A stretch of 13,947 nt of DNA from a virus (taxonomy: Duplodnaviria > Heunggongvirae > Uroviricota > Caudoviricetes). Where the stretch lies: the IMG/VR virus record IMGVR_UViG_641522650_000013; one strand, 5' to 3'. Below, piece after piece: positions 11,333-11,592 of this stretch (position 1 is its first letter; the number at the start of each line of letters is the position of its first letter). Made by a program: the position numbers and the translations under genes. The notes beneath the pieces were generated by a model. The model had not been told where the DNA came from and searched no databases. It saw only the letters and a list, made by a program, of their open reading frames with translations.

Positions 11333-11592
11333 TGTTGTCTCGGTTGTCTTTGTTGTCTCAATTTGTAATTGAGATTGATTTATAAGGATTTTATTTTAAT
11401 TTCTGAGACAACACCGAGACAACATTTAGCCATTTTGAGACAACAGGGCGAAAGTGTGTTTTTAGTCTGGCAGGCAGTGAGACAACATTTATGCCGGGTG
11501 AGACAACACGAAATTGCAAATGTTGTCTCAGCAAAACCCAGACGTGGCGCGGCCTGTAGAGCCGTGAGACAACAAAGACAACAGAGACAACA
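11333..11592. repeat. Iteron array, probable replication origin: about ten copies of the 9-mer GAGACAACA in both orientations plus an AT-rich palindrome
   Basis: GAGACAACA at 11405, 11416, 11437, 11479, 11500, 11566, 11584 (variant AAGACAACA at 11575); reverse complement TGTTGTCTC at 11333, 11351, 11521 (partial at 11343); palindrome TCTCAATTTGTAATTGAGA 11356-11374 in an AT-rich stretch; immediately downstream of the primase/helicase genes. Confidence 0.75.

Follow-up and report, generated by a model that had tools for sequence, protein, structure and literature searches.

An iteron array downstream of pri-rep as the probable replication origin of a PICI-type satellite island in Shigella boydii

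The virus record IMGVR_UViG_641522650_000013 (Caudoviricetes; 13,947 nucleotides, hereafter the window) carries, at positions 11333–11592, an array of short repeats immediately downstream of pri-rep, a gene for a fused primase-helicase-initiator (Pri-Rep). We conclude with high confidence that this array and its flanks (about 11307–11620) constitute the vegetative replication origin of a satellite island of the Gram-negative phage-inducible chromosomal island (PICI) type, located between yicC and dinD in Shigella boydii. The original prediction of a probable iteron origin, made from the bare sequence, is supported by the position of the array, the opposed sets of repeats around an AT-rich region, the conservation of the iterons and their covariation with the C-terminal domain (CTD) of Pri-Rep. 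Origins of this kind are already known from PICIs and from the Staphylococcus aureus pathogenicity islands (SaPIs). As far as searched, the present type of Rep, which combines TOPRIM and DUF927 domains, and its iteron classes are not yet characterised experimentally.

The iteron array and its AT-rich centre

The 9-mer GAGACAACA occurs in ten exact copies within 11333–11592, seven on the + strand and three on the − strand, as the original prediction had noticed (about ten exact copies in both orientations). Two degenerate sites, AAGACAACA at 11575 with one mismatch and GGTTGTCTT, read on the + strand at 11342–11350, with two, bring the array to 12 sites. Outside the array, the 13.9-kb window holds one exact copy (1826, within an IS1 insertion sequence) and one copy with a single mismatch (13096). 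When up to one mismatch is allowed, 13 matches are found in the whole window, a count reached by none of 200 dinucleotide-preserving shuffles (mean 2.8, maximum 8). The excess of repeats is thus confirmed. The first iteron begins 27 nt past the pri-rep stop codon; three iterons, on the − strand, lie to the left of a 45-bp AT-rich stretch and nine to its right. The sets on the two sides, each of at least two iterons, are in opposite orientation (left set −, right core set +). The features of the region are as follows.

11316..11323, +, conserved non-iteron box CACATGCG, past the stop codon and ahead of the first iteron
11333, 11351 and 11521, −, exact GAGACAACA sites
11405, 11416, 11437, 11479, 11500, 11566 and 11584, +, exact GAGACAACA sites
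11333..11359, −, left iteron set, three head-to-tail 9-mers (TGTTGTCTC GGTTGTCTT TGTTGTCTC on the + strand) oriented away from the AT-rich region; equivalent position (+25 to +45 past the stop codon) occupied in all classes
11356..11374, no strand assigned, inverted repeat TCTCAATTTGTAATTGAGA, read directly
11360..11404, no strand assigned, AT-rich spacer (45 bp), proposed DNA-unwinding element
11380–11388, semi-conserved motif TTTATAAGG inside the AT-rich element
11405..11445, +, right core iteron set, three direct copies (11405, 11416 and 11437; spacings of 11 and 21 bp)
11479..11529, mixed strands, additional long-form iterons at 11479 (+), 11500 (+) and 11521 (−), with 21 bp between neighbours
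11531..11563, no strand assigned, GC-rich block (AAAACCCAG-N4-GGCGCGG...), with the inverted iteron on its left and the terminal triple on its right
11566..11592, +, right terminal iteron set, three head-to-tail 9-mers (GAGACAACA AAGACAACA GAGACAACA), inverted partner of the left set

The start-to-start distances of the 12 sites are 9, 9, 54, 11, 21, 42, 21, 21, 45, 9 and 9, and the inner spacings (11, 21, 42, 21 and 21 bp) approximate whole helical turns. A 31-nt inverted repeat of 97% complementarity (11330–11360 and 11565–11595) is made up by the outermost three sites at the two ends. The AT-rich segment originally noticed among the repeats is borne out by its composition (84% A+T, compared with 48% for the window) and by its stability: of the 13,907 40-mers in the window, none is less stable than the one at 11361 (dG −40.3, mean −56.4, standard deviation 4.0), which lies four standard deviations off the mean. 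Neither DnaA boxes (up to one mismatch) nor the IHF consensus nor GATC is present here, which is consistent with a self-contained initiator.

Iteron classes and the C-terminal wing of Pri-Rep

Related loci were sought by a scan limited to one genome per species, which gave 38 Enterobacterales loci with relatives of the helicase half; records from E. coli, Klebsiella and Raoultella were added, and the comparative set comprises 42 related loci. Comparison of the iterons in related elements, the check suggested with the original prediction, found the layout kept in the 42 loci, with four iteron classes and with forms of 6 and 12 sites. All loci having repeats follow a single positional plan, counted from the stop codon: two to three tandem − sites at about +25 to +45, an AT-rich stretch, then + sites at about +96, +107 and +128. 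The long form, to which the window belongs, adds sites at about +170, +191 and +214 (the latter −) and a terminal triple at about +257 to +275. The short form ends after six sites in L004, L011, L042 and others, including the 12.15-kb circular record L004, and the left set, AT-rich spacer and right core set of the window correspond to this minimal origin. Among 5,426 complete E. coli genomes, 33 carry class A, the class of the window; relatives are known from at least 38 species.

Each iteron class is accompanied by its own motif at the Pri-Rep C-terminus.

Class A: iteron GAGACAACA; C-terminus GYQGRV-REdGRQIRVYV (core YQGRV-RE)
Class B: iteron TGAACCAAC; C-terminus GYQRKSPRIxGRQINVYV (core YQRKSPRI)
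Class C: iteron TAACCC(G/A)(T/C); C-terminus RYK(R/K)KAL..GGKQHxFY
Class D: iteron TGGGATAAG; C-terminus NWQIRTPRLKHLNNARPWTYV (core WQIRTPRLKHL)

The correspondence between iteron class and C-terminal motif, a β-hairpin of about 20 residues, comprises four pairs and has no exception among the iteron-bearing loci. Class A and class B iterons differ by the same two bases (GA versus AC) at each of the 12 sites; their Pri-Reps are up to 88% identical and differ mainly in 5–6 residues of the C-terminal hairpin. Within class A, variable alignment columns number 1 of 99 in the iterons versus 41 of 162 in the spacers (p 1e-8), and within class B 9 of 108 versus 109 of 153 (p 5e-26). Judged from these alignments, the iterons are under strong purifying selection. 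Two islands (L044 and L047) have the same backbone, with a 99.9%-identical ssb, but carry a D5-type helicase (D5_N/DUF5906/Pox_D5), iterons of the sequence TAGGGATA and, within the exchanged segment, an extra open reading frame (ORF) of 100 aa. The breakpoints of this exchange fall at window positions 9596, inside pri-rep, and 11681, the start of ssb, and the helicase domain and the repeat array therefore travel as one cassette. Rep-ori specificity pairs that change together, as looked for in a SaPI-like system, are thus found both in the four iteron classes with their four wing motifs and in the L044/L047 cassette swap.

The architecture of Pri-Rep provides a candidate for the recognition element. 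Pfam identifies Zn_Ribbon_Prim, Toprim_3 and DUF927 (2e-39) in the protein, and the helicase body matches the SaPIbov1 Rep structure 8TCH (E 1.7e-7) and Cch of the staphylococcal cassette chromosome SCCmec (5DGK, E 9.5e-4). The AlphaFold2 model of the 482-aa helicase plus CTD was unusable (pLDDT 53), and a model of the CTD only was used.

10944..11303, +, Pri-Rep CTD, last 120 aa, winged helix in the AlphaFold2 model

In this model (pLDDT 81, pTM 0.70) helices (H) and strands (E) are disposed as H2-21, E39-42, E51-55, H57-64, H70-79, E93-98 and E101-110. The best Foldseek match is the C-terminal part of 8TCH (probability 1.00, TMq 0.60), followed by 5VFX, a DNA-bound winged-helix oriT-binding protein; a sequence profile of the CTD compared with the PDB gave a chance match only. 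HTH_56, the Pfam model of the Cch helix-turn-helix domain, is matched by 10 of 23 relatives, at best with 2e-5. The CTD segment that differs between iteron classes is the β-hairpin wing YQGRVREDGRQIRVYVL: the class-specific residues fall on the first strand of this terminal hairpin, and the region of the recognition helix is common to classes A and B. A winged-helix fold of the CTD is supported by the predicted model, and the covariation suggests that this domain would recognise the iterons.

Additional wing variants, such as GYQTLTPRLRHLGNIR and GWQIRMPRLRHLNNARPW, are seen among database homologues and suggest the existence of more than four iteron classes. Many of these homologues (set P0001–P0120), about 700 aa long, have DUF927 but lack a TOPRIM domain.

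Several non-iteron motifs accompany the repeats. The motif TTTATAAGG is found in 24 of the 42 loci, across classes A, B and C, and a box of the CAC(A/G)N(A/G)NG type, represented in the window by CACATGCG, lies at +2 to +12 past the stop codon in most related loci of all four classes; the two motifs may be a priming site or a site for a host factor. The GC-rich block is conserved in the long-form loci of classes A and B, and a by-eye check of 15 sequences found no convincing compensatory hairpin in it. Five loci (L025, L035, L036, L038 and L041) have in its place a second AT-rich stretch with CCTTATAAA, the inverse of TTTATAAGG. The sequence TCTCAATTTGTAATTGAGA had been described as a perfect palindrome; it consists in fact of 8-bp arms, TCTCAATT and AATTGAGA, around a 3-nt centre (TGT) and is not palindromic through this centre. 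Its left arm overlaps the third iteron. The inverted repeat is not present in the other six aligned class A loci (L001, L005–L008 and L045) and for this reason is dismissed as a functional element; from this alignment it is probably lineage-specific and incidental.

Known origins, proposed mechanism and alternative readings

The closest tested precedent is the E. coli PICI EcCICFT073. In Gram-negative PICIs the origin is the region 3' of pri-rep, where two sets of iterons flank an AT-rich region, and a pri-rep-ori segment of EcCICFT073 maintained a temperature-sensitive plasmid at the restrictive temperature in a manner that required both rep and ori (PMC6092414). In the EcCICFT073 sequence, opposed GGTAGACAG-like repeats surround an AT-rich stretch and are followed by a small ORF, ssb and perC. 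Both elements thus share the rightward order int-alpA-...-pri-rep-ori-ssb-perC, an origin immediately 3' of pri-rep and opposed sets around an AT-rich region, and the SSB encoded after the tested origin is 58% identical to that of the window. They differ in the iteron (GGTAGACAG-like versus GAGACAACA), in the Pri-Rep, which in EcCICFT073 is a 584-aa 'DNA primase family protein' with no BLASTP similarity to the TOPRIM-DUF927 protein of the window, and in the state of the island, the window copy being IS-ridden with a truncated pri-rep.

In SaPIs, rep is followed directly by an origin of 6–12 iterons, arranged around an AT-rich centre with two or more on each side in opposite directions; the winged-helix CTD of a self-loading Rep helicase binds them (PMC9371898). 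The window resembles SaPIbov1 and SaPI1 in its homologous helicase body (8TCH), in the best structural match of its CTD model, again 8TCH, and in the layout of the origin downstream of rep. It differs in its iterons (9 bp versus 5–6 bp in the Gram-positive system), in its fused TOPRIM primase, a separate gene in SaPI1 and SaPIbov1, and in regulation by AlpA instead of Stl. Cch and Cch2 of SCCmec (PMC7581432; 5DGK) likewise combine a DUF927 helicase, a C-terminal HTH_56 domain (as matched in the relatives above) and the iterons of a putative origin downstream of the gene, but this staphylococcal element has three 5-nt iterons only and a separate polymerase-like primase.

The likeness to theta-replicating plasmids is more distant and concerns repeated initiator sites beside an AT-rich unwinding element and the specificity of initiator for iteron. 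The iterons of pSC101, R6K, RK2 and P1 are 17–22 bp long and mostly direct, and their small winged-helix Rep proteins need DnaA, DnaB and DnaC. In contrast, the units of the window are 9 bp long and stand in both orientations, no DnaA box (up to one mismatch) accompanies them, and the initiator is a helicase-primase and not of Rep_3 type.

A mechanism can be proposed by analogy with EcCICFT073 and the SaPIs. Pri-Rep, a TOPRIM primase joined to a hexameric helicase of the DUF927, SaPIbov1-Rep-like type, would be made from the gene immediately upstream, and its C-terminal winged-helix domain would bind the twelve 9-bp iterons, specificity residing in the wing, the β-hairpin of about 20 residues at the extreme C-terminus. 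Rep hexamers would assemble on the opposed iteron sets, melt the 45-bp AT-rich element and load themselves as replicative helicase, encircling single strands. The fused TOPRIM domain would then prime, and SSB from the downstream gene would coat the unwound strands. The origin would be expected to fire after helper-phage induction via AlpA.

Several observations weigh against reading the array as such an origin. Because the loci share descent, the independent switches behind the covariation are few, perhaps three. One locus, L027 (Citrobacter sp. FP75; 5440–6040), encodes a class B Pri-Rep and has no iterons downstream. The Foldseek E-values of the CTD are modest (0.016), and the match of the window CTD to HTH_56 reaches an E-value of only 0.17. 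The experimentally tested Pri-Rep of EcCICFT073 is, as said, dissimilar in sequence, and pri-rep is a pseudogene in the window, where the origin cannot be self-driven. Finally, we found in the literature no replication or binding experiment on class A iterons or on an enterobacterial Pri-Rep of the DUF927 type. Searches with the iteron sequences returned unrelated primer and miRNA papers only; the supplements of PMC6092414 hold no iteron sequences, and the iterons of its Fig. 2a lay outside the search. A literature search on '8TCH' returned no relevant paper. As an observation in its own right, L027 presents an initiator without an origin, the reverse of the situation in the window.

Could the repeats serve mainly as a transcriptional operator or promoter, through which Pri-Rep or another island regulator controls the downstream ssb-perC genes, replication starting elsewhere? 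The terminal triple does stand 12 nt upstream of a T-rich stretch with the −10-like hexamer TACTAT (11604–11609), all four classes have a similar TA-rich hexamer after the last iteron, and two weak sigma-70-like matches lie in the AT-rich part. Yet a promoter and terminator scan of the region gave weak matches only, near the shuffled expectation, its best promoter (9/12) barely exceeding the shuffles and none lying at the terminal triple. Moreover, an arrangement of 12 sites as two opposed sets, with the window's least stable DNA between them, is that of an origin and not of an operator, the iterons covary with the helicase CTD and not with alpA or other regulators, and the analogous segment of EcCICFT073 supports replication. 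We consider this account improbable. A regulatory side-role of the array on ssb is possible, and is kept in play because the TA-rich hexamer follows the terminal triple in all classes. Even less credit, very little indeed, can be given to the proposal that the repeats are a packaging (cos or pac) or recombination site, or are coding. Satellites do carry cos or pac sites of their helper, but a distant blastn search of the region against 50,697 phage records returned nothing, and a repeat that changes in concert with the Rep C-terminus is unexpected for a site of the helper terminase or for an att site. Open frames of 80 and 116 codons (11369–11611 on the + strand and 11391–11741 on the − strand) span the region; however, neither has a Pfam match, both are interrupted in many relatives (they are not open in L006–L008, L010, L012, L028, L031 and L040), and substitutions spare the 9-mers on both strands with no codon-position pattern. 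The frames are artefacts, as first supposed, and neither ORF belongs in the annotation. The reading of the repeats as part of a conserved protein-coding gene is rejected on the broken frames in homologues and the lack of a Pfam match.

The comparison with satellite P4 bears on the remaining alternative. P4 alpha unites primase, helicase and a C-terminal origin-binding domain in one polypeptide and recognises short iterons, of about 8 bp, close to the gene that encodes it; the element crr lies next to the alpha gene and shares its iterons with a distant ori. The array might accordingly be a cis enhancer like crr, true initiation taking place at a second iteron cluster elsewhere in the island, and the long form does resemble a core joined to an extra block of iterons. 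Against this stand the absence of a second iteron cluster from the window and from the 20–26-kb loci L001, L045 and L046, the sole stray exact copy being the one in IS1, and the short form, in which six iterons around the AT-rich element suffice in the 12.15-kb circular record L004. The helicase, too, is of DUF927 type and not of the D5/SF3 type of P4 alpha (no D5_N, Pox_D5 or DUF5906). We regard an enhancer role of this kind, with initiation elsewhere, as unlikely, by a shade more so than the operator. More speculatively, the long form may combine a core origin with a crr-like enhancer. P4 and the window have the N-terminal zinc-ribbon and TOPRIM part in common, and a P4-like D5/Pox_D5 helicase is found in relatives such as L044, but no P4 sid, psu or delta genes were seen. 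The original prediction had placed the array where PICI or P4-type elements have their ori: the PICI half of this statement stands, the array lying directly 3' of pri-rep, and the P4 half does not, since the DUF927 helicase and the single iteron cluster without a separate crr mark the element as PICI type.

The island, its decay and the significance of its probable origin

Apart from the IS1 transposase, the only gene on the − strand, the genes identified by Pfam all point in one direction, in the order int, alpA, antA, DUF4222, ash, pri-rep, array and ssb.

1–1320, +, tyrosine integrase gene int (Pfam)
1726–2229, −, IS1 transposase, between int and alpA
3154–3357, +, alpA (Pfam)
antA and ash, +, AntA antirepressor and Ash-family protein (Pfam)
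5470–6718, IS3-family copy inside the ash region, missing from L043 and L046
8547..11306, +, pri-rep, fused primase-helicase-initiator (zinc ribbon, TOPRIM, DUF927 helicase, C-terminal winged-helix domain), a pseudogene here
11681..12115, +, ssb, island single-stranded-DNA-binding protein (Pfam SSB), first gene past the origin
12674–13947, IS3-family element beyond the gene next after ssb, common to L043 and L046

Shigella boydii CDC 3083-94 has an identical integrase, and the island is found at 99.8–99.9% identity in two NCBI assemblies (L043 and L046), both without the IS at 5470–6718. These near-identical islands and related ones are located between yicC and dinD/yicG; the attC sites listed in Table S1 of PMC6092414 are yicC-dinD for the PICI EcCIRM13514 and yicC-yicG for CfCIP10159. 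Described E. coli PICIs such as EcCIMP1 have the same set of genes (int, alpA, antirepressor, DUF4222, Ash, Icd-like, primase and PerC). On these sequence comparisons, the window is assigned to an island of the Gram-negative PICI type, located at yicC-dinD in Shigella boydii. The Pfam scan, with no further search for such features, recognised no capsid, terminase or cos feature in the window. An enterobacterial-type island with a class B origin also appears in a 430-kb contig labelled Chryseobacterium sp. 18061, of the Bacteroidota (L009, CACSKA010000004.1), an assembly that is probably contaminated or mislabelled.

Three IS elements interrupt or flank the island, and pri-rep is split into two ORFs, 8514–9857 (zinc ribbon and TOPRIM) and 9951–11306 (DUF927). 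In an alignment with intact 919-aa E. coli homologues, an in-frame TGA (9855–9857) replaces a conserved Trp. Island L046, 99.8% identical, has an intact pri-rep (918 aa), and the L043 copy is broken at other places; from these sequences, decay of pri-rep in S. boydii looks independent, the origin staying perfect. The PICI in S. boydii is in decay: its initiator gene is already disrupted, and its cis-acting origin still survives. Because pri-rep has a nonsense codon, the origin in the window, itself intact, is probably orphaned and silent unless a class A Rep comes in trans.

Some complete circular records described as plasmids consist of whole islands with no other replicon (L004, NZ_CP148430.1, 12,152 bp; L003, CP031371.2; CP031370.2; L002, NZ_CP146545.1). 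They could be excised replicating circles or true episomes. L002, L003 and L004 speak indirectly for autonomous replication by pri-rep-ori, which is demonstrated so far only in EcCICFT073. PICIs were stated in 2018 to have no plasmid state (PMC6092414); contrary to this statement, some such islands may persist as plasmids.

Taken jointly, these results allow a more speculative proposal, which we advance tentatively and hold to be rather unlikely as a whole: the C-terminal hairpin would be a compact, swappable recognition code, and the orphan S. boydii origin would be kept because it still acts in trans. A change of 5–6 residues (GRV-RE to RKSPRI) could then retarget the protein from TGAGACAAC to TGAACCAAC at all 12 sites, and, if true, at least four orthogonal replicons would be built on nearly identical helicase bodies. 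Likewise, the orphan origin could fire with the Rep of an incoming class A satellite or titrate it, which, if true, would be a form of satellite incompatibility or of piggy-backing.

The identification of the array places the origin of a widespread family of enterobacterial satellite islands. Its most useful by-product is that wing hairpin and iteron covary: this singles out about 20 residues as a candidate determinant by which a SaPIbov1-Rep-like helicase of Gram-negative bacteria would recognise its origin, and could yield orthogonal Rep-ori vector pairs.

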